Shown here: positions 2,844-55,653 of the stretch, piece after piece
Layout: each line of letters begins with the position of its first letter
Numbering within the stretch: position 1 is the first letter of the stretch
Assembly (NCBI GenBank): GCA_018609125.1
Contig: JABAYF010000002.1
Location: forward strand, 25,540-89,539
Direction of reading: 5' to 3'
Source: Candidatus Nanopelagicales bacterium
GTDB lineage: Bacteria; Actinomycetota; Actinomycetes; S36-B12
Length of the DNA: 64,000 bases
The notes under the pieces: model-generated
What the model saw: only the letters and a program-made list of their open reading frames with translations
Database searches by the model: none
What the model was told of the DNA's origin: nothing
Program-made: the position numbers and the translations under genes

Positions 2844-4922
2844 ATGGCCAACCGACGTCTTGTCTCTTTTTTGCACCGTCCCGCGTGGGTGACGCGCTGG
2901 GTGAGCGACGTTCCCGCCCAGGCCGGCGTCATCGGCGCCGCATGGAGCGTAGCCGGCAGCCTTTCTCGCGGCCTGCTCCCTCGATCCCCGATCCAGCAGG
3001 CCGTCGCCACCGGCGTCGTGGCCACCATCAACTACGAAATCACCGCCACCGGATGGGCCTCGCTGGAAGCAGCGGCTGCTCTGCCAGGCCAGCGCCCCGG
3101 CACCCGCGCCCGCGTTGTGGTCGCGGCAGCAGCCATCTCGGTCGGCTACGCGACCGCCTTCGCCACCGCCTCTCGGGCACCACATTCAACCGTGGCCGCC
3201 GGCGCTTACGCTCTCGGTCGCCAAGCCGCATTCGCTGGCATTGCCGGCGGTGCCGCCTCGATCTGGGATGAGATTTTGCATCGGCAATTAAAGTTGCGCC
3301 CCGGCATCGACACAACCGTGATTCCCAACGTCATCACCGGTGCGGCCATTGCAGCGGGCAACGTATTTTTCGCCGTTCGACGGGCACATCGCTACGGCAC
3401 CGCGAGTGACAATCATCGATTCTCCGGGGTGAACGCACGATCGGTTTCGGTGGCGGCGGCAGCCGGCTTGGGCAGCACGCTCGGCCTGGCCACGCTCGTC
3501 ATCACCGAGCAGGCAGCAGCCCGGGTACTCGAACACGGCATCGCCCGGGTTATCCGCCGCGACCCCGGCGCGATCGGCGCGCTGGCCGCACACACCGTGC
3601 TTCTCGGCGGAATGGCCGCGCTTTCCGTTCGCGCGATTCGGGCCACCACCCTGCGGCTGCAGTTTCGCGACAACACCGTCGAACCGGCCTACCCGGAACC
3701 ACCCACCTCCGGTCACGTGTCCGCCGGCCCCACCAGCGCGATGCCCTTCGCCAGTATCGGCAAGGAGGGACGTCGTTTTGTTCTGATGGCGCTCACCGCC
3801 GCCGAAATCACCCGGGTCACCGGCCAGCCGGCGATCGACCCGGTGCGAGTGGTGGGTGGGTTTGAGTCTTCCGCCGATGTCGCCGAGCGCGCCAAACTCG
3901 CTCTGGCAGATCTGCAGGCCTGCGGCGGTTACGAGCGCAGCATCATCTGCGTGGCCGTTCCCACCGGCGTGGGCTATGTGAACTACACGATTACCGAGGC
4001 ATTGGAATACCTGACCGGTGGCGACTGCGCCACGGTTGTTCCCCAGTACGCGCTCGTACCCAGTGCCCTCGCCATGCCGCGTACTGCCGAAGGCGTGCAA
4101 CTGACCCGGTTAGTTCTCGTCGGTATCCAGGCCCATATCCAATCCCTGCCCACCGACCGTCGCCCCGTCGTGGTGTTGCTGGGGGAAAGCCTCGGCGCCA
4201 ATGTCGCCCTCGACGTCTCTACCGTGCCCGGGCCCTATGTCGGAATCCCCGCTCTCGATCACCTCGGCGTCGCTGGCGGCGTCTATTACGGCGTGCCCTT
4301 CCGCACCCAATTTTGGCACCGCTGGCAGGCCAATCCTGAGGCGATGGATCCCGGGGATCACCTCGTGTGCGTCAGCCAGCCTAGTGACGCCCCACCACTG
4401 GGACCGGGGCAGATGCGCCACATGATGGTCATCCATGACGACGATCCGGTGAACAAATACGGGTACCGGATGGCTTTTCAACCACCCTGGTGGATGGGAC
4501 CGCCAGCCACTCGCCCACCGATGGTTCCGCGCGAATCACGGTTTCGCCCGATCAGCACCTTCGTCCTGGCTACCGTCGACCTACTCAATGGCATGAACTC
4601 CAAGCCGGGTACGTTCGTGCGCCGCGGCCACGACTACCGCATCGAAGCTCGAGAAAGCCTCGAACAGTCTTTCGGACTGAGTTCTACCCCGGAACAAGCG
4701 CAGGCCATTGAGGCAGCCCTGCGCCATCGCGAAACTGACTGGGCCGCCCGGCGCATGATCGCTCGCAAACTGGCGACCACCTGGCGCAGTGTGCAGCAAA
4801 CCCTCAACGCCTGGGGTGAGGCACCGGTGGATGTCGCTGATCTTGACCCCACATTGATACCCAAGGGGGCTATGTCACCCCTGGCCCGAATCGGACAAAT
4901 TAGTGCACCACCGGCTGCTTAG
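2844..4922 (+). CDS. membrane-anchored alpha/beta hydrolase (Abhydrolase_9-type), paralog 1
   Basis: Hydrophobic multi-TM N-terminal half, GESLG nucleophile elbow and C-terminal GHDYR. The start is moved from ORF-track 2739 to ATG 2844 because the first 60 nt of the long ORF are the terminator hairpin. Confidence 0.75.
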   Translation: MANRRLVSFLHRPAWVTRWVSDVPAQAGVIGAAWSVAGSLSRGLLPRSPIQQAVATGVVATINYEITATGWASLEAAAALPGQRPGTRARVVVAAAAISVGYATAFATASRAPHSTVAAGAYALGRQAAFAGIAGGAASIWDEILHRQLKLRPGIDTTVIPNVITGAAIAAGNVFFAVRRAHRYGTASDNHRFSGVNARSVSVAAAAGLGSTLGLATLVITEQAAARVLEHGIARVIRRDPGAIGALAAHTVLLGGMAALSVRAIRATTLRLQFRDNTVEPAYPEPPTSGHVSAGPTSAMPFASIGKEGRRFVLMALTAAEITRVTGQPAIDPVRVVGGFESSADVAERAKLALADLQACGGYERSIICVAVPTGVGYVNYTITEALEYLTGGDCATVVPQYALVPSALAMPRTAEGVQLTRLVLVGIQAHIQSLPTDRRPVVVLLGESLGANVALDVSTVPGPYVGIPALDHLGVAGGVYYGVPFRTQFWHRWQANPEAMDPGDHLVCVSQPSDAPPLGPGQMRHMMVIHDDDPVNKYGYRMAFQPPWWMGPPATRPPMVPRESRFRPISTFVLATVDLLNGMNSKPGTFVRRGHDYRIEARESLEQSFGLSSTPEQAQAIEAALRHRETDWAARRMIARKLATTWRSVQQTLNAWGEAPVDVADLDPTLIPKGAMSPLARIGQISAPPAA

Positions 4923-47085: not shown

Positions 47086-48762
47086 TCAGCCCTGCTCAAT
47101 CTCACCGATGACGGTGGCTCCGAGTTCGGCGATAGCCAAAGACTCGCCAACGAGCGAGGCGTCCTCGGCATCGTCATCGGTCAGGCTTGGTGTGTCGGCT
47201 TCAACGGCGGGTACGCCCGGTGATGTGGGATCTGCTTTACTCCCGCCACCTCCACCGGTTCCGATCGGCACCACATCAACGCTGACGGAGGCATGCATCG
47301 TCGTTTGCACGGCGCGTTGCATGAGTTCGTCGTGGCGAGCTGAACGAATGTTGTTGAGTTTGCCGATATCGGCCACTCCCACGGCCAGTACCGCGTCGTC
47401 GACGGACAGGGGCTGGGCATCGGAAAAAGCCATCCAAGCGATGCGACGCTCGGCCTTCAACGCCTCCAGAATCGCGGGCCACATGATGACAACGTCGGCC
47501 AGGGTGACCGCACCGCTTGCTACCGTCGCTGGCTCTGTTTTCGCTGGCTCTGTTTTCGCTGGCGCCGGCGCCGTGCTCGGCGCAACGCTGGACAGCTTCG
47601 GTGGTGCCGGCGTTTCGATCGGGCGCGGTGGCGCTTTCGGCGCTGGTGGGGTGGGCGCCGCCGACAACGACGGCAGCAGCAATCGCGCGGCGAGGAGTTC
47701 CAATTGCAGCCGAGGTGCCGTGGCGCCACGTAGATCAGACAGAGCAGAACTGACCAGGTCAGCAGCTGCAGAAAGTTGCGGCAGGTTAAAGCGCGTCGCT
47801 TGCTCTCGCATCTGCTCGATCTCGGCCTCGGGTGCATCCAGGAGCGGCTGGGCCTGCTCCCACGACATCGCCGAAATGACGATCAGATCGCGTAAACGCT
47901 GGAGCAGGTCGGTGGCGAAACGACGTGGATCGTGCCCGGCACTGATCACCGCATCCACGGTGCCTAGGAGGGCGGCACCATCACTGTCGGCAAGTGCTGC
48001 CATGGCCGCATCGACCAGCGCCACATCGGTGACACCCAATTGGGCGACCGCGTCTGGGTAGGTGATGCCGTCGATGGAACCTGCCACCAATTGGCCGAGC
48101 ACCGAGAGGGCATCGCGCACACTGCCCGCACCCATGCGTGCCACGAGCGCGAGCGCGTCTGGGTCGGCGGTAATTCCTTCTGCGGCACATACATTTTCTA
48201 GGTGCGCCTGCAAAGTTTTGGTGGGCACGAGCCGAAACGTGTAGTGATGCGTGCGTGATCGAATGGTGGGCAGCACCTTGTCTGCCTCGGTGGTGGCAAA
48301 AATGAACCGCACGTGCTCAGGGGGTTCCTCCACCAACTTCAACAAGGCATTGAATCCTGCTGTGGTGACCATGTGTGCCTCGTCGATGATGTACACCTTG
48401 TAGCGGGAGGAGACCGGTGCAAACATCGCGCGTTCTCGAAGATCGCGGGTGTCATCAACTCCGCCGTGGCTGGCGGCATCTAGTTCGATCACGTCAAGGG
48501 AACCCGGCCCATTGGGGGCAAGCTCGACACAGCTGATGCAGGTGCCGCACGGTTCAGGGGTGGGGCCCTGTTCGCAGTTGAGAGAGCGAGCCAGGATGCG
48601 TGCTGTTGATGTTTTGCCACACCCCCGCGGGCCGGACAATAGATAGGCGTGATGCACGCGGTCGTTGGCGAGGGCGCGAGCGAGGGGCTGGGTGACGTGT
48701 TCTTGACCCACAACCTCACTCAGCCGGCCCGGCCGATAAGTGCGGTAGAGAGCCAGGGACAT
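47086..48762 (-). CDS. dnaX: DNA polymerase III subunit gamma/tau
   Basis: Walker [10 protein letters not shown], a zinc module CGTCISC and an IIDEAHM box. ATG 48762 (MSLALYR) is preferred because AGGGTGG lies upstream (ORF track start is 48771). Confidence 0.95.
47528..47557 (-). repeat. 15-nt tandem duplication encoding [10 protein letters not shown] in the DnaX linker
   Basis: gctggctctgttttc x2, read directly. Confidence 0.85.
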
Positions 48763-48867
48763 AACGGCCACCCTAACGCCCAGGTCCTACCACCTGTGAC
48801 TACTCACCCGCTAGCCTGCAGGGCACCCAAAAGGACTCAGCCACCCAGTTGGTGGCGCCGTTGATGT

Positions 48868-48960
48868 AGGGACCCCCCGCGCACCCGCTAGAGCTCGCTT
48901 ACCCTTGCTGCCTTCCGGCCCTGGGGGAGTTGGGCGAGATTGCGCCGCACGAGGGGTCAG
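48868..48960 (-). ncRNA. ffs: signal recognition particle RNA (small bacterial type); ends approximate
   Basis: The minus strand contains the conserved domain IV core CCCAGGGCC-GGAA-GGCAGCAAGGG (tetraloop at 48913-48916). Flanking helices pair by hand (CUCGC/GCGAG, GCGCA/UGCGC, GACCCC/GGGGUC). The location upstream of dnaX beside tRNA-Ser is classic. Confidence 0.7.
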
Positions 48961-49029
48961 TGCAAAAGCATAGGCGGCTTCACAACAGCGTTGGCGGCCC
49001 ACCCCAAAGGAGTAAGCCGCCAACCACGG

Positions 49030-49114
49030 CGGAGGATACGGGATTCGAACCCGTGAGGGGTTGCCCCCAACACGCTTTCCAAGCGTGCGCCCTAGGCCAC
49101 TAGGCGAATCCTCC
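49030..49114 (-). tRNA. tRNA-Ser (anticodon GGA)
   Basis: Hand-folded: acceptor GGAGGAT/ATCCTCC, anticodon stem CACGC/GCGTG with loop TTGGAAA, a long variable arm TTGGGGGCAACCCCTC and T-arm ACGGG-TTCGAAT-CCCGT. Confidence 0.95.
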
Positions 49115-49966: not shown

Positions 49967-50968
49967 ATGCTGCGAGCCGGTGTAGATCTTGGCGGCACCA
50001 AGATTCAAGTTGCCATCTTGGATCCCAATCTCGATGTGGTGGGCCAGTGCCGAGTTCCCACCCCGCAGGACCACGGCAGCAACGGTGTTCTCGACGCCAT
50101 GATTGGCGCTGTTGGTACCGCGCTCACCGCTGCCAACGCCACCGCCGATCAACTCATCGGTGTCGGCGTCGGTGCTCCCGGACAAATTGACAAGGCCGCT
50201 GGCACGCTCAGTCACGCCATCAACCTGCCCGACTGGATGGGCACCGTTGAGGTCTCCTCGGTGATGCGCACGGCGCTGGGCGTTCCCATTGAACTTGCCA
50301 ACGACGTGCAGGTGGGGGTGATGGCCGAGTCACGCCTGGGGGCGGGACGTCCCTATGACTCCATGCTCGGTGTGTTTTGTGGCACCGGCGTTGGCGGTGG
50401 TGTTGTGATGCACGACACCCTTTGGTTGGGTCGTGGAGCGGCCGGCGAAGTTGGGCACATGGTGGTCGAACCTGATGGAGCAAAGTGCACGTGCGGGCGA
50501 CGCGGCTGCCTGGAGGCCTATGCCGGTCGCGCCGCCATGGAGATTGAGGCACGCCACCGGGTGAAGCACGGTCACAAGACCGACCTGTTCGACATCATGG
50601 AACACAAGGGCCGCACCCGCTTGGCCAGTGGTGTGTGGGCAAAAGCTTTGGCGCACGACGACAAAATGGCGACCCGGCTCATCAAGCGAGCCGAGTGGGC
50701 CCTGGGCCTGGCCATCGCCAGCGCGGTGAACCTGCTCGACATCGAAGCGGTCATCATCGGCGGCGGTCTCGGTTGTCGCCTCGGTGCACCCTTTGTTGAT
50801 CGCATCCGCGAACAAATGATGCCCCACCTCGTGCTGCCCGAACGTCCACCGCAGGTGCTCGTTGCCGCCCTCGGCGATCTCGGCGGAGCCACCGGCGCAG
50901 CGCTGCTCGTTGAGCACACTGTGGCGCCCACGGAACAGCTAGGCGCTGTTTTGGACCCCGACGCTTAG
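49967..50968 (+). CDS. ROK family sugar kinase (glucokinase-like)
   Basis: DLGGTK N-terminal ATP motif and the zinc motif CTCGRRGCLEAY. Confidence 0.85.
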   Translation: MLRAGVDLGGTKIQVAILDPNLDVVGQCRVPTPQDHGSNGVLDAMIGAVGTALTAANATADQLIGVGVGAPGQIDKAAGTLSHAINLPDWMGTVEVSSVMRTALGVPIELANDVQVGVMAESRLGAGRPYDSMLGVFCGTGVGGGVVMHDTLWLGRGAAGEVGHMVVEPDGAKCTCGRRGCLEAYAGRAAMEIEARHRVKHGHKTDLFDIMEHKGRTRLASGVWAKALAHDDKMATRLIKRAEWALGLAIASAVNLLDIEAVIIGGGLGCRLGAPFVDRIREQMMPHLVLPERPPQVLVAALGDLGGATGAALLVEHTVAPTEQLGAVLDPDA

Positions 50969-50977
50969 GCTGCACCC

Positions 50978-51277
50978 ATGAATGTTGCCGCACTCACCCG
51001 CCGCCAGATGCCATCTCGATGGTCATGGGCTTCGAAGAATTCCACCCTGAGCATCGCCTCGCGCGGATCGGTGTTGAGTATCGCCTCAATTGGTTCATCG
51101 GGATCAATCCTGAGCATTGGTTCCTCGGCGTCAATCGGCAGCATCGGTTCCTTCGCGAGTTTGGGCAGCATCATGTCCTTCGCCTCTCGCTTTTCGGTCA
51201 TGTCTTCGCGAAGCGCCTGGGCCATGCTGTCACCTCGTGGTCGCGGGGTGTCGACTGTTACCGATGCGGCACAATAG
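50978..51277 (+). CDS. Ser-x-x triplet-repeat small protein (99 aa), function unknown; strand assignment provisional
   Basis: Ser falls at every third residue from residue 13 to 79, encoded by both TCN (16) and AGY (7) codons. A competing antisense ORF lies at 50965-51225 (see findings). Confidence 0.5.
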   Translation: MNVAALTRRQMPSRWSWASKNSTLSIASRGSVLSIASIGSSGSILSIGSSASIGSIGSFASLGSIMSFASRFSVMSSRSAWAMLSPRGRGVSTVTDAAQ

Positions 51278-51346
51278 ATTTATGGCTTCTCCGGAATCCC
51301 AGATTCGTGCGTGCCCTGCATGTGCAGCAAAAAATCGGCTGCCCCA

Positions 51347-51763
51347 ATGAACATGCCGGCCGGTTGGTATGCCGACCCCTTCACCGATCATCTCCAGCGC
51401 TACTGGACCGGGGACTCCTGGACCAAAGAAACCCGACCGCTTGCACCGGAACCAACCCCGGCCGAGGCGCCACCTGTCACCACCGATGGCCAACCCGTCG
51501 TGGTGCGCGACTATCTCGTGGTTTCTATCCTTACCTTGATTTTTTGCTTTTGGCCGCTGGCAATTCCGGCGGTGTACTTCGCTGCCCGTGCGAACTCAGC
51601 CAAAAGTAAAGGTGATCTGGCTGTTGCGGTGCGATATAGCGAGCGGGCGCGCCTGTTCATCATGCTCTCACTCGTTGGGGGTGCCCTGGTTGCTCTTTAT
51701 TTGGGTTTCGTGGTCTTCACCCAAGGCACCGACGGGCTCGGATTACTCGGCGAGGTAACGTAG
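51347..51763 (+). CDS. DUF2510 + CD225/dispanin family membrane protein
   Basis: An N-terminal GWYADP...RYWTGDSW (DUF2510-like) motif, then a two-TM CD225-like segment (LVVSILTLIFCFWPLAIPAVYFAARANS). Start set at ATG 51347. Confidence 0.7.
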   Translation: MNMPAGWYADPFTDHLQRYWTGDSWTKETRPLAPEPTPAEAPPVTTDGQPVVVRDYLVVSILTLIFCFWPLAIPAVYFAARANSAKSKGDLAVAVRYSERARLFIMLSLVGGALVALYLGFVVFTQGTDGLGLLGEVT

Positions 51764-52425: not shown

Positions 52426-55400
52426 TTACACACTGCGGCGATATTGGCCGCCCACTTCGAAGAATGCCTCGGTGATTTGCCCAAGCGAACAGTGCCGCAC
52501 TGCGCTCATCAGGGCCGCAAAAACATTGCCACCGGTGAGCGCTACCTGCTTAAGGTGGGCGAGTTCCCGTTGCGCATCAACAGCGTGTTCCTGCTGAAAC
52601 GCCACGAGCCGATCTAATTGGGACTGCCGTTGCGTTTCGGTACCGCGAGCGAGTGACTGTGGTTGATCAGTCACCCGTGATGGGCCAGGGTTAAGAAACG
52701 TATTCACACCGACGATGGGAATGGAACCATCATGTTTACCGTGTTCGTATCGCATTGATTCATCTTGAATCTTGCCGCGCTGATAGCCGGTCTCCATCGC
52801 GCCAAGAACCCCACCGCGATCCGCCATGCGATCAAACTCGGCTAGGACAGCCTGCTCAACAAGGTCGGTCAACTCCTGCACAATGAAGGAACCCTGAAGG
52901 GAGTTTTCATTGAGCAGCAGACCCCATTCGGAGTCAATGATCATCTGAATTGCCAGGGCACGGCGCACTGATTCAGCCGTGGGTGTGGTGACCGCCTCGT
53001 CATATGCGTTGGTGTGCAGTGAGTTCGCGTTGTCATAAAAAGCGCATAGCGCCTGCAATGTGGTGCGAATGTCGTTGAAGTCCATCTCTTGGGCGTGCAG
53101 CGAACGCCCAGAAGTCTGAATGTGATACTTCAGCTGTTGAGAGCGAGAATCTGCTTCGTACACATCGCGCATCGCTAGCGCCCAGATGCGTCGAGCCACC
53201 CGACCAATGACGGTGTACTCAATGTCCATGCCATTGGAGAAAAAGAAGGAGAGGTTGGGCGCGAAGTCATCCACCTGCATGCCACGAGCAAGATAGGCCT
53301 CCACATACGTGAAGCCATTGGCCAGGGTGAAAGCAAGCTGGCTAATCGGGTTCGCGCCTGCCTCGGCAATATGGTAGCCGCTGATCGACACCGAATAGAA
53401 GTTGCGCACCTCGTGATCAATGAACCACTGTTGAATATCTGCCATGCAGCGCAATGAAAATTCGGTGGAGAAGAGGCAGGTGTTCTGCCCCTGATCCTCC
53501 TTCAAAATATCGGCCTGCACTGTGCCGCGCAGCACGCTGAGTGTGTGCCGGGAAATCTCCGCGGCCTCCACTGCGTCTGGTGACCGGCCATGTTGTGTGG
53601 CAAATGAATCAAGTTGGGCGTCGATTGCTGTGTTGAAATACATCGCCAAAATTGCCGGTGCCGGGCCATTGATGGTCATCGACACCGATGTGTTCGGGGC
53701 GCACAGGTCGAAACCCGCGTACACCTGCTTCATGTCGACAAGCGTGGCCACGCTCACCCCAGAGGTGCCGACCTTGCCGTAGATATCGGGTTGGCGGGCC
53801 GGATCGCGGCCGTAGAGGGTGACCGAATCGAATGCGGTCGACAGGCGCACCGCGGGTTGACCCGCACTAAGTAAATGAAACCGAGCGTTCGTGTGCGCTG
53901 GGTCTCCTTCTCCGGCAAACATGCGCGCTGGGGATTCTCCCGTTCGCTTCAGCGGAAAAACACCGGCGGTATACGGGAAATAACCCGGCAGGTTTTCATC
54001 GCGCAGAAAACGCAGGATGGCCCCGGGTTCATCGTCGGGGGGCAATGACACGCGCGATATTTCACTGTCACTTTGGGTCCTGCGCTTTAGGGGCGCTTGA
54101 ACATCGCGCCCCCGGATCGGATAGGTGAGTTCATCAGCTTCGTACCTCGCCCGGGTGGTCGGCCATTCGTCGAGTTGCTTGAGCACACCCGGTGCCAATA
54201 GTGACTGCACATCCTCAGCCAAAGTGTTGGCTGCTTGGGCTGCGGTGTCTTGACTCGCCTCGGTTAACTGTACGGCCGCGCTCCTGAGTGCTGTCCAGTC
54301 ACGCACGCGGTCAATCTGTTCAGCCGTTTCATCGTGATACGCGCGCACAGCGGCACTAATTTGCGCCAGGTGACGTTCACTCCCACGCGGAATAACCACG
54401 TGCTGCGGTGCTTTGTGCGTTTGCAGAGTTGGCATCGGGAGTGCATCGAGTCCGTGTTCGGTGAGCCGCATGATGAGATCGATCGCAAGTCGGTCTACGC
54501 CGGCGTCGGCGAAATGTGCGGCCGAGGTAAGAAAGACCGGCATCTGCTCCCAGGTTGCAGCGAAGTCTCCTCGGTTGCGCAGCACCTGGCGGGCAACATC
54601 GCGTCGAGCGTCATCTGCCCCTCGGCGTTCAGATTTGTTGATTGCCACGACATCGGCGAAATCAAGCATGTCGATTTTCTCCAACTGTGACGGCGCACCA
54701 AACTCAGGGGTCATCACATATAGCGCCACGTCGCAGTGACCCACAATGGAGGTATCGGCTTGGCCCATGCCTGGTGTTTCAATGATCACGAGGTCATAGC
54801 CGGCTGCTGCACAGGACTTCACCATGTCGTTGATGCCTGGTGGCAACCCCGAACCCGCATCGCGCATGGCCAGTGACCGGAAAAAAACAACATCCGGGTC
54901 GATGGAGTTCATTCGAATGCGATCACCAAGCAGCGCACCACCACCCCGACGGCGGGTCGGATCGAACGCCAAAACTGCAATCCGCACCTTGTCTTCCCCG
55001 TGTCGCCGGAACCGGCGGATCAATTCATCGGTGAGCGAGGACTTCCCCGATCCTCCGGTGCCCGTGATACCCAGTACGGGCACCCGAGGGGGGTCGTCGG
55101 TGCGCAACCGTGCGACGAGGTCGTCGTCGGGTGAGTTCTCGATCAGCGTGATCATACGAGCCAGGTCAGCGACACAACCCGCACGCAGCCCTTCCCAGGA
55201 TGGCTTGTCTTCGGTGAGATCAACATCGCACTCACGGATAAGCTCGTTTATCATTGCCGCCAGCCCCAGGGATTGGCCCTCTTCCGGTGAAAAGATGCGC
55301 ACACCGATGCTGGCTAACTCGCTGATCTCTGCGGGGATGATGACGCCCCCGCCACCGCCATAGATGCGAATGTGAGAACCACCGTGAACGTTGAGTTGTT

Positions 55401-55653
55401 CTCGCAGGTATGCGAAATACTCCAGGTGCCCACCCTGGTAGGAAGAGATGGCCACACCCTGTACGTCTTCACTAATCGCCGCTGCCACTACGTCAGCAAC
55501 ACTGCGGTCGTGACCGAGGTGGATCACTTCTGCGCCCTGGCTCTGCAGGAGGCGGCGCATGATGTTGATCGCGGCATCGTGGCCGTCAAATAGGCTCGCG
55601 GCCGTCACGAAACGCACCGGATGATGCGGAACGTGCAGTACGGGAGTCCCCAT
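52426..55653 (-). CDS. icmF: fused isobutyryl-CoA mutase (B12-binding domain + MeaB-like GTPase + mutase domain)
   Basis: 1075 aa. The N-terminal FDGHDAAINIMRR B12 domain is followed by a P-loop GTGGSGKSS, then a methylmalonyl-CoA-mutase-like catalytic domain. Confidence 0.9.
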   Translation of the reverse strand: MGTPVLHVPHHPVRFVTAASLFDGHDAAINIMRRLLQSQGAEVIHLGHDRSVADVVAAAISEDVQGVAISSYQGGHLEYFAYLREQLNVHGGSHIRIYGGGGGVIIPAEISELASIGVRIFSPEEGQSLGLAAMINELIRECDVDLTEDKPSWEGLRAGCVADLARMITLIENSPDDDLVARLRTDDPPRVPVLGITGTGGSGKSSLTDELIRRFRRHGEDKVRIAVLAFDPTRRRGGGALLGDRIRMNSIDPDVVFFRSLAMRDAGSGLPPGINDMVKSCAAAGYDLVIIETPGMGQADTSIVGHCDVALYVMTPEFGAPSQLEKIDMLDFADVVAINKSERRGADDARRDVARQVLRNRGDFAATWEQMPVFLTSAAHFADAGVDRLAIDLIMRLTEHGLDALPMPTLQTHKAPQHVVIPRGSERHLAQISAAVRAYHDETAEQIDRVRDWTALRSAAVQLTEASQDTAAQAANTLAEDVQSLLAPGVLKQLDEWPTTRARYEADELTYPIRGRDVQAPLKRRTQSDSEISRVSLPPDDEPGAILRFLRDENLPGYFPYTAGVFPLKRTGESPARMFAGEGDPAHTNARFHLLSAGQPAVRLSTAFDSVTLYGRDPARQPDIYGKVGTSGVSVATLVDMKQVYAGFDLCAPNTSVSMTINGPAPAILAMYFNTAIDAQLDSFATQHGRSPDAVEAAEISRHTLSVLRGTVQADILKEDQGQNTCLFSTEFSLRCMADIQQWFIDHEVRNFYSVSISGYHIAEAGANPISQLAFTLANGFTYVEAYLARGMQVDDFAPNLSFFFSNGMDIEYTVIGRVARRIWALAMRDVYEADSRSQQLKYHIQTSGRSLHAQEMDFNDIRTTLQALCAFYDNANSLHTNAYDEAVTTPTAESVRRALAIQMIIDSEWGLLLNENSLQGSFIVQELTDLVEQAVLAEFDRMADRGGVLGAMETGYQRGKIQDESMRYEHGKHDGSIPIVGVNTFLNPGPSRVTDQPQSLARGTETQRQSQLDRLVAFQQEHAVDAQRELAHLKQVALTGGNVFAALMSAVRHCSLGQITEAFFEVGGQYRRSV

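Follow-up and report, generated by a model that had tools for sequence, protein, structure and literature searches.

Small proteins that carry Ser at every third residue over tens of residues are known from the HxsA systems, whose products are presumed to be peptides modified by radical S-adenosylmethionine (SAM) enzymes. Here we describe a 99-amino acid (aa) protein with the same spacing, MNVAALTRRQMPSRWSWASKNSTLSIASRGSVLSIASIGSSGSILSIGSSASIGSIGSFASLGSIMSFASRFSVMSSRSAWAMLSPRGRGVSTVTDAAQ, encoded on the plus strand at positions 50978-51277 of a 64,000-nucleotide (nt) stretch of DNA from a Candidatus Nanopelagicales bacterium (GenBank assembly GCA_018609125.1, contig JABAYF010000002.1, positions 25,540 to 89,539 of the forward strand). 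The whole stretch is referred to hereafter as the window. The open reading frame (ORF) is very probably a genuine stand-alone gene of a widespread, uncharacterised small-protein family. In HxsA the residues between the Ser are polar, whereas in this family they are hydrophobic and His is missing from the first triplet position. The NCBIfam model HxsA4 (NF038313) matched the window protein with 21.9 bits (E 2.4e-4), below the curated cutoff of 55 bits, and gave sub-threshold matches for 22 of 30 members (best E 1.8e-6), a similarity that we attribute to the common period-3 Ser. Membership in the His-Xaa-Ser HxsA family was rejected on the score, on the absence of His from the protein and on the absence from its vicinity of HxsD and of the radical-SAM partners HxsB and HxsC.

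Strict tripeptide periodicity is also shared with collagen-like Gly-X-Y proteins and with Gly-rich polyproline-II (PPII) bundles such as bacterial collagens, the snow-flea antifreeze protein and spider-silk GGX. Set against what is generally known of the fold requirements of these types, the family differs in that the periodic residue is Ser and not Gly, in that Pro is missing from the core and in that bulky aliphatic side chains fill the remaining positions. Collagen-like membership was rejected for the window protein, in which Ser is periodic and the two Pro lie outside the core. Left-handed beta-helix hexapeptide, RTX and pentapeptide repeat families were also considered and gave no Pfam match. 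Serine-rich repeat glycoproteins of Gram-positive cocci (Fap1/GspB type) carry a signal peptide and an LPXTG anchor, and their Ser-X dipeptide repeats run to great length; the window protein is 99 aa long with a period of three, and has neither an N-terminal hydrophobic signal nor LPXTG. Voltage-sensor S4 segments (Arg-x-x) resemble the family in placing a polar residue at every third position among hydrophobic ones, and only a 3(10) helix brings such a pattern onto one face. However, the S4 residue is Arg and not Ser, and the family has no channel domain and no sequence relation to S4, which makes this an analogy only. Type I toxin-like small membrane peptides have in common with the family only a variable stand-alone context and hydrophobicity, and about 100 aa would be atypical for them. 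Pfam gave no match for the window protein at E<=1 or for 30 members at E<=0.1, PADLOC gave no family match, and a profile search of the PDB found no relative but only engineered (TGS)n linkers. Full-text searches of the literature turned up nothing relevant to the family.

The locus had been singled out in an earlier reading of the sequence, referred to here as the original prediction, as a 99-aa ORF of 23 Ser-x-x triplets with an antisense ORF lying across it. An ORF listing and a periodicity scan reproduced the ORF and its triplets. The Ser-x-x periodicity is far beyond chance, and no second period-3 Ser run was found in the six frames of the 64-kb window. The elements of the locus are as follows.

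50978-51277, plus strand: predicted protein-coding gene, 99 aa and stop, of the SRWS/(Ser-x-x)n family (ORF listing, homologues, frame tests).
50965-51225, minus strand: antisense shadow ORF, 86 aa, EPMLxID-like and wobble-aligned, judged not to be a gene (ORF listing, frame tests).
51014-51214, plus strand: core of 23 consecutive Ser-x-x triplets, residues 13-79 (periodicity scan, codon counts).
51014-51214, plus strand: parts of the core in order, namely the SRWSWAS motif, the LSIASRGSVLSIAS block, the (S-[IVFA]-[GAL]) repeats and the SRFSVMSSRS motif.
51089-51150, plus strand: 27-nt (nonapeptide) tandem repeat within the core, 2.3 copies with 80% match (Tandem Repeats Finder).
51215-51274, plus strand: short C-terminal tail, AWAMLSPRGRGVSTVTDAAQ, with the A-x-[ML]-x-x-R motif that follows the core in the family.

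Ser occupies residues 13, 16 and so on to 79. These periodic Ser are written with 16 TCN and 7 AGY codons, and a recount codon by codon gave the same split as had been claimed. The coordinates also confirmed that the antisense ORF shares its third codon positions with the plus frame: these lie at 50980+3k on the plus strand and 51223-3k on the minus strand, both congruent to 1 mod 3. The gene is flanked upstream by a ROK-family kinase gene (Pfam ROK, E 9e-57), with the plus ATG 9 nt 3' of its stop codon TAG (50966-50968), and downstream by a gene for a CD225/DUF2510 protein.

Relatives of the plus-strand product were numerous. Its translation gave 29 word-based matches of common architecture among 5.8 billion proteins, against one for the minus translation (P0001), which comes from the same organism as the window. 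A profile of the plus-strand matches, searched against 1.84 billion proteins, gave 1,438 cluster representatives (clustering at 50% identity) with E<=1e-3, of which 757 had E<=1e-10. Patterns built from a 10-sequence alignment were combined with tblastn to scan one genome per species (185,579 species), which located 305 loci, mostly in Actinomycetota. Eighty of these were retrieved for analysis; the codon, context and tail counts given below cover 81 loci, with subsets as stated. The retrieved loci include Demequina, Cellulomonas, Terrabacter, Blastococcus, Longivirga and Streptomyces, many metagenome-assembled genomes (MAGs) of Acidimicrobiia and Thermoleophilia, and a few non-actinobacterial bins (Rubrivirga and Candidatus Aeolococcus). 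A protein of Candidatus Chlorohelix (Chloroflexota) is a further member. The family is widespread, mainly in soil bacteria with a high guanine-plus-cytosine (GC) content, and the original prediction's statement that similar SxLSIGS-rich hypothetical proteins occur in other actinobacteria was borne out by the database matches and the 305 loci.

The family is undescribed: it has no Pfam or NCBIfam model and no named member, and its database entries are called 'hypothetical protein' where they are named at all. Sequence clusters of this conserved small protein number over 1,400, spread through Actinomycetota with members in Chloroflexota and other phyla, and have no model, structure or publication. 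Unnamed entries of the same family include WP_389120877.1 (Streptomyces sp. NPDC001549), WP_342397746.1 (Candidatus Chlorohelix sp.) and HEY7143751.1 (Streptosporangiaceae MAG). The window protein agrees with these entries in motif architecture, size and stand-alone gene position. It differs in using AGY codons for Ser more often (7 of 23), in its N-terminus of 12 residues, in its short tail, which lacks the hydrophobic helix, and in its neighbours, the ROK kinase and the CD225/DUF2510 protein. Its best genomic match is Demequina mangrovi NBRC 105856 (L002), with 71% over residues 11-80.

The motifs SRWSLWS-[EQ][DN]S-x-LSI[AG]S[RKT]GSVLSIGS[VI]GS ... SRWS[VL][ML]SxRS were found in every retrieved locus. 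In the family a short N-terminus is followed by SRW-S-[LI]-[WA]-S-[EQ]-[DN]-S-x-L-S-I-[AG]-S-[RKT]-G-S-V-L-S-I-G-S and then by about 10 further S-[IVFA]-[GLA] triplets, in which a super-period of 9 residues is seen; S-R-W-S-[VL]-[ML]-S-x-R-S closes the core, and A-V-[ML]-x-x-R comes after it. In roughly a quarter of members the core is followed by a transmembrane-like helix that is rich in Ala and Val and has an Arg-rich end: among 81 tails, 19 include a segment of 19 residues whose Kyte-Doolittle hydropathy is at least 1.6, then the Arg-rich end. Taking the family as defined from the 81 loci, the window protein carries the N-terminal motif, sought as S-R-W-S-[LIW]-[WA]-S within about 15 residues of the start, as SRWSWAS (residues 13-19) and the conserved block L-S-I-[AG]-S-[RKT]-G-S-V-L-S-I-[GA]-S as LSIASRGSVLSIAS. 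Its 23 triplets compare with a family threshold of at least about 15 without interruption, and the end of its core, sought as S-R-[WF]-S-x-[ML]-S-x-R-S followed by A-x-[ML], reads SRFSVMSSRSAWAML. Long members have no fused domains by Pfam, and their extra length comes from over-extended ORF calls. A second subfamily (P0014, P0020, P0025, P0026, P0030, P0087, P0102 and P0120) lacks the SRWSLWS start and has an Arg-rich N-terminus (MRNR...), near-perfect GS[AST]GSILSI nonapeptide repeats and the end SRWSVLAWR.

As judged by comparison of the loci, selection acts on the amino acids of the plus frame, which was the central claim of the original prediction, and the antisense ORF is a by-product of a wobble-aligned frame in GC-rich DNA. 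The codons for the periodic Ser are informative here. TCN and AGY differ by two substitutions, and each single step between them encodes a residue other than Ser. Over the 81 loci the periodic position was TCN in 1602 cases, AGY in 138 and non-Ser in 28. Because the two-step codon-family state is 5-fold commoner than all one-step states together, it is the amino acid Ser itself that is under selection. The two codon families are mixed within single alignment columns with at most one non-Ser codon, for example 62 TCN, 15 AGY and 1 other. Read antisense, the same positions give Asp or Glu for TCN and Leu for AGY, with 138 Leu cases.

Protein-level measures pointed the same way. Across an ungapped 36-codon block in 78 distinct loci, mean pairwise identity was 71% for the plus frame and 46% for the antisense frame, and the BLOSUM62 scores were 3.23 and 2.34, respectively. 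Among 33 related pairs, differences at codon positions 1, 2 and 3 of the plus frame numbered 163, 87 and 641 (72% at position 3), the concentration at synonymous sites by which the original prediction had proposed to tell the strands apart. The ratio of nonsynonymous to synonymous differences (pN/pS) in these pairs was 0.19 for the plus frame and 0.42 for the antisense frame. In the Candidatus Chlorohelix homologue (L083), with a gene GC of 40%, Ser is written as 23 AGY and 7 TCN; the gene has a canonical AAGGAGG Shine-Dalgarno sequence and the protein ...SVLSIGSFNSVLSIGS... is retained. Its antisense frame contains stops, with Leu where the actinobacterial antisense frame has Asp or Glu. Conservation at the protein level extends across phyla and over a GC range of 40% to 75%.

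The antisense frame is open across the repeat in nearly all GC-rich loci, for which reason frame openness cannot discriminate between the strands. One caveat bears on the identity comparison. The loci were found through plus-frame patterns and tblastn, which inflates plus identity inside the pattern blocks, although this ascertainment bias spares the Ser-codon test outside those blocks, the pN/pS test and the test with the low-GC homologue. Switching between Ser codon families, together with a low-GC homologue, resolves the strand from sequence comparison and is a method that can be transferred to other loci.

Two further elements concern the start of the gene.

50966-50971, plus strand: putative promoter, a -10-like hexamer TAGGCT, of which TAG is the ROK stop codon (sequence and family-wide hexamer).
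51008-51010, plus strand: alternative in-frame ATG, which would yield MPSRWS... (N-terminus of about 9 homologues).

We strongly infer that the family gene has its own promoter and a leaderless mRNA. TAGGCT ends 6 nt before the ATG at 50978 and conforms to the family pattern NANNNT; at locus L060 the arrangement TAGGCT-N6-ATG is identical. A NANNNT hexamer (consensus about cAtgAT) stands 6 nt before an in-frame ATG or GTG at 55 of 78 loci. Among the 38 loci that have a single start it is present in 26; for ATG/GTG triplets taken together, the background in this DNA is 9% (binomial p 6e-19). In these single-start loci, from genomes of ~70% GC, A is found at -11 in 23 and T at -7 in 26, and these are the two key bases of the bacterial -10 element. 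With the hexamer so spaced, transcription would begin exactly where the start codon begins, and leaderless mRNA is common in Actinomycetota. No Shine-Dalgarno-like motif precedes the start codon nearest SRWS in 61 of 76 loci. In the window, transcription would begin at or beside the A of ATG 50978 and would give a leaderless mRNA.

The original prediction had noted that the plus ATG has no clear Shine-Dalgarno sequence and that the minus ORF has one (GAGGTGA with a 4-nt spacer before the ATG at 51225-51223), and the sequence agrees on both counts. The missing plus-strand motif is explained by the probably leaderless mRNA that is typical of the family, and the minus-strand GAGGTGA is a single-locus coincidence. 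The start at 50978 is favoured over ATG 51008 because the hexamer and its 6-nt spacing precede 50978; neither a -10 hexamer nor a Shine-Dalgarno sequence was found before ATG 51008, which makes it the less likely start. In having A at -11, T at -7 and no Shine-Dalgarno sequence, the family gene is like leaderless actinobacterial genes (-10 TANNNT), a likeness that concerns the mode of expression and not the protein family and that is drawn here from sequence. Weighing against a leaderless promoter, the first base of the hexamer is more often C or G than T and a -35 element was not found. A sigma-70 two-hexamer scan of 50700-51500 gave no promoter, and no plus-strand terminator was found there. 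A role as a Ser-codon attenuation leader was rejected, the ORF being too long and too conserved and its contexts too variable. The promoter signature supplies a start site for the whole family and with it a cleaner gene model.

No conserved neighbour was found by BLAST clustering of all ORFs within 6 kb on either side of the 81 loci. Apart from the family and its antisense shadow, the clusters contained nothing but generic ABC ATPases, which occurred around 22 of the 81 loci at scattered positions and were judged to be background. A Pfam tally of the nearest genes (79 on each side) counted 72 families upstream and 93 downstream, and no neighbour family occurred in more than 4 of 79 loci, those loci being from related genomes. 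The contexts in Chlorohelix and Streptomyces differ again from those of the other loci. Radical-SAM, YcaO, lanthipeptide or other modifying enzymes were not recurrent within the same distance of the 81 loci. The family gene is an autonomous unit that lies outside any conserved operon. Within genera it is vertically inherited, as in two Demequina species that have the order DUF218 - family gene - FeoB. The gene is not phage-borne, the one IMG/VR match being a collagen-like Gly-x-x ORF (L082, see below). A tblastn search of plasmids and phages gave no match, but a low-complexity filter may mask a Ser-x-x query. One MAG (MFD05841.bin.1.21) holds two copies of the family gene on different contigs (L022 and L048), each with a Sulfotransfer_3 gene upstream and an ABC-2 permease downstream, and paralogous or duplicated loci therefore exist.

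Family-wide, the first variable position of the S-x1-x2 triplet is Ile (25%), Val (20%), Ala (12%), Leu (10%) or Phe (7%) and the second is Gly (36%), Leu (24%) or Ala (10%). Gly recurs at x2 of every third triplet at 1.9 times expectation, which gives the nonapeptide super-period S-V-L-S-I-G-S-V-G. The super-period claimed in the original prediction is therefore clear across the family (Gly at a lag of 3 triplets) but modest in the window itself, at 2.3 copies of 27 nt. The family core, about 45 residues long, carries no charge save one Arg or Lys, and Arg-Trp motifs flank both ends. The best 19-aa segment of the core has a Kyte-Doolittle hydropathy of 1.3-1.9. AlphaFold2 predicted one long helix at residues 38-84, with a mean predicted local distance difference test score (pLDDT) of 52 from 30 sequences and 57 from 150 sequences; values exceeded 70 only around residues 60-80 (pLDDT 72-77).

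These properties suggest, tentatively, that the product may be a self-associating, possibly membrane-associated helical protein. The core of Ser, Gly and Ala together with Ile, Val and Leu would form helical, tightly self-packing segments, which would associate with the cytoplasmic membrane or with each other. The Ser hydroxyls would provide inter-helix hydrogen bonding, and the optional C-terminal helix would anchor the protein in the membrane. As the gene has no conserved neighbour, the proposal implies no enzymatic partner. Both parts of this proposal face difficulties. As to the membrane, the window protein has no C-terminal hydrophobic helix, and the core is non-canonical as a transmembrane segment (median +3.55 kcal/mol on the Hessa scale for the best 19 aa). 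As to the helix, the AlphaFold confidence is low overall and an alpha-helix does not put period-3 residues on one face.

Whether the plus-strand product exists at all is the question raised by two alternatives, both of which we regard as having next to no likelihood. One holds that the gene is the minus ORF at 50965-51225, which would encode an acidic repeat protein (EPMLxID/[DE]-P-x), and that the Ser-x-x ORF is its shadow. This view would be served by the good Shine-Dalgarno sequence GAGGTGA with its 4-nt spacer and by an antisense frame open across the repeat in almost all GC-rich loci, and a gene caller did pick the antisense ORF in one contig, where it yielded P0001. That contig (L001; ENA ERZ26868619, ctg14411_2.22x) consists of 49 kb from long reads at 2x coverage and belongs to the same organism as the window. 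It differs from the window by homopolymer indels only, which break the plus ORF, and the caller annotated the antisense ORF in place of the plus-strand gene. The case illustrates how an open wobble-aligned antisense frame in GC-rich DNA can mislead gene callers on the strand, as L001 carries the antisense call only. Moreover, the minus translation has no database family, the antisense frame scored lower in identity and BLOSUM62 and higher in pN/pS, and its Asp or Glu turns into Leu in 138 cases and almost throughout in Chlorohelix, where stops are added. We consider the minus-strand gene effectively refuted. The other alternative, non-coding tandem-repeat DNA or a fortuitous ORF functionless on both strands, would fit the 27-nt tandem repeat and the lack of a known domain. 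It is contradicted by the comparative data, in which codon position 3 accounts for 72% of the substitutions that separate related loci, the protein is conserved across phyla from 40% to 75% GC, and the context of the start codon is conserved too.

If the plus-strand protein is accepted, it is its form that invites other explanations. The core could instead be a period-3/period-9 beta-rich or extended assembly (a beta-solenoid, an amyloid-like Ser ladder or a 3(1)/PPII-like bundle) and the product a self-assembling structural protein of the cytoplasm, which we think rather unlikely. A strict period of 3, overlaid by a super-period of 9 residues, is out of step with an alpha-helix, the mostly beta-branched x1 (Ile plus Val, 45%) and the 36% Gly at x2 favour beta or extended structure, and the core fails the Hessa transmembrane criterion. 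However, AlphaFold predicted no strands, albeit at low confidence, hexapeptide, RTX and pentapeptide models of Pfam and the PDB gave no relative, and the core has neither the Pro nor the regular Gly that PPII and collagen-type helices need. The PPII, collagen-like or solenoid fold put forward as speculation in the original prediction is neither supported nor refuted by these data, AlphaFold having returned a low-confidence helix only. A bolder and quite improbable version holds that the period-3 Ser stripe in a background of Ile, Val, Leu and Gly is a new structural principle, a non-alpha periodic assembly. This could be 3(10)/PPII-like or a 9-/18-residue solenoid with ladders of Ser hydroxyls, in a membrane-active or filamentous oligomer. 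The exact 3-residue spacing of ~23 invariant Ser among aliphatic residues fits no known tripeptide-repeat fold, and solving the structure could thus bring to light a new fold or principle of assembly. We think it improbable to a still greater degree that an enzyme encoded elsewhere modifies the periodic Ser (for example by dehydration, cyclisation, cross-linking, glycosylation or phosphorylation) and that the protein is thus its ribosomally synthesised precursor or substrate, with the HxsA radical-SAM system as the closest analogue. The strictness of Ser, without Thr or Ala in its place, suggests that the hydroxyl itself matters, and sub-threshold HxsA4 matches were obtained for 22 of 30 members. 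Yet those scores lie far below 55 bits and reflect period-3 Ser only, His is absent, no modifying enzyme recurs near the 81 loci, and members, at 90-130 aa, have conserved motifs flanking the core at either end and show no recognisable division into leader and core peptide.

Several other observations were made in the neighbourhood of the gene. A bacterial small signal recognition particle (SRP) RNA (Rfam RF00169, 64.8 bits) at 48865-48961 and tRNA-Ser(GGA) at 49028-49114 lie on the minus strand between dnaX (47086-48771, minus strand) and the genes upstream of the ROK kinase. A link between the family gene, with 28% Ser in its product, and a tRNA-Ser 1.9 kb away was considered; it is probably a coincidence of the dnaX-ffs-tRNA-Ser neighbourhood. 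Downstream, a 22-aa ORF with a CxxC motif, MASPESQIRACPACAAKNRLPQ (51284-51352, plus strand), contains an A6 run and extends a short way into the DUF2510 + CD225 membrane-protein gene (51311-51763, plus strand). The start of the latter is uncertain, being either GTG 51311 or an ATG giving MNMPAGWYADP, and a frameshift or a fused zinc-ribbon N-terminus is conceivable at this gene. Beyond it lies a gene for a 1075-aa fused B12-binding/MeaB-like GTPase/methylmalonyl-CoA-mutase-type protein (52426-55653, minus strand), whose IcmF-like architecture was judged from the Pfam annotations of L001. The indels of L001 fragment many genes, including dnaX, the ROK kinase and this IcmF-like mutase, and the contig was set aside as a nearest relative for substitution analysis, where the same organism with homopolymer indels only is uninformative.

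Outside the window, in the region 3646-5601 of L083, the Chlorohelix family gene follows two genes on the same strand that have no Pfam matches. One encodes a Cys-rich, zinc-ribbon-like protein of 337 aa that includes a hydrophobic segment; the product of the other, 108 aa long, has two such segments as well as a Pro/Thr-rich linker. The family gene itself overlaps a small CxxC...CxxC ORF downstream. This cluster could be a membrane-related operon in this one phylum. The IMG/VR locus L082 (UViG_3300020048_000063, 2923-3276) was rejected as a phage-borne member; it is a false positive, a collagen-like Gly-x-x ORF (GSIGSIGSTGSLGSTGSQGSTGPSGPQ...) that matched the pattern by chance on a viral contig of 36% GC. 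The scan for period-3 Ser also turned up an unrelated, perfect hexapeptide repeat, (SRTSPE)n, in an Acidimicrobiia MAG (L057, 8899-9027, minus strand).

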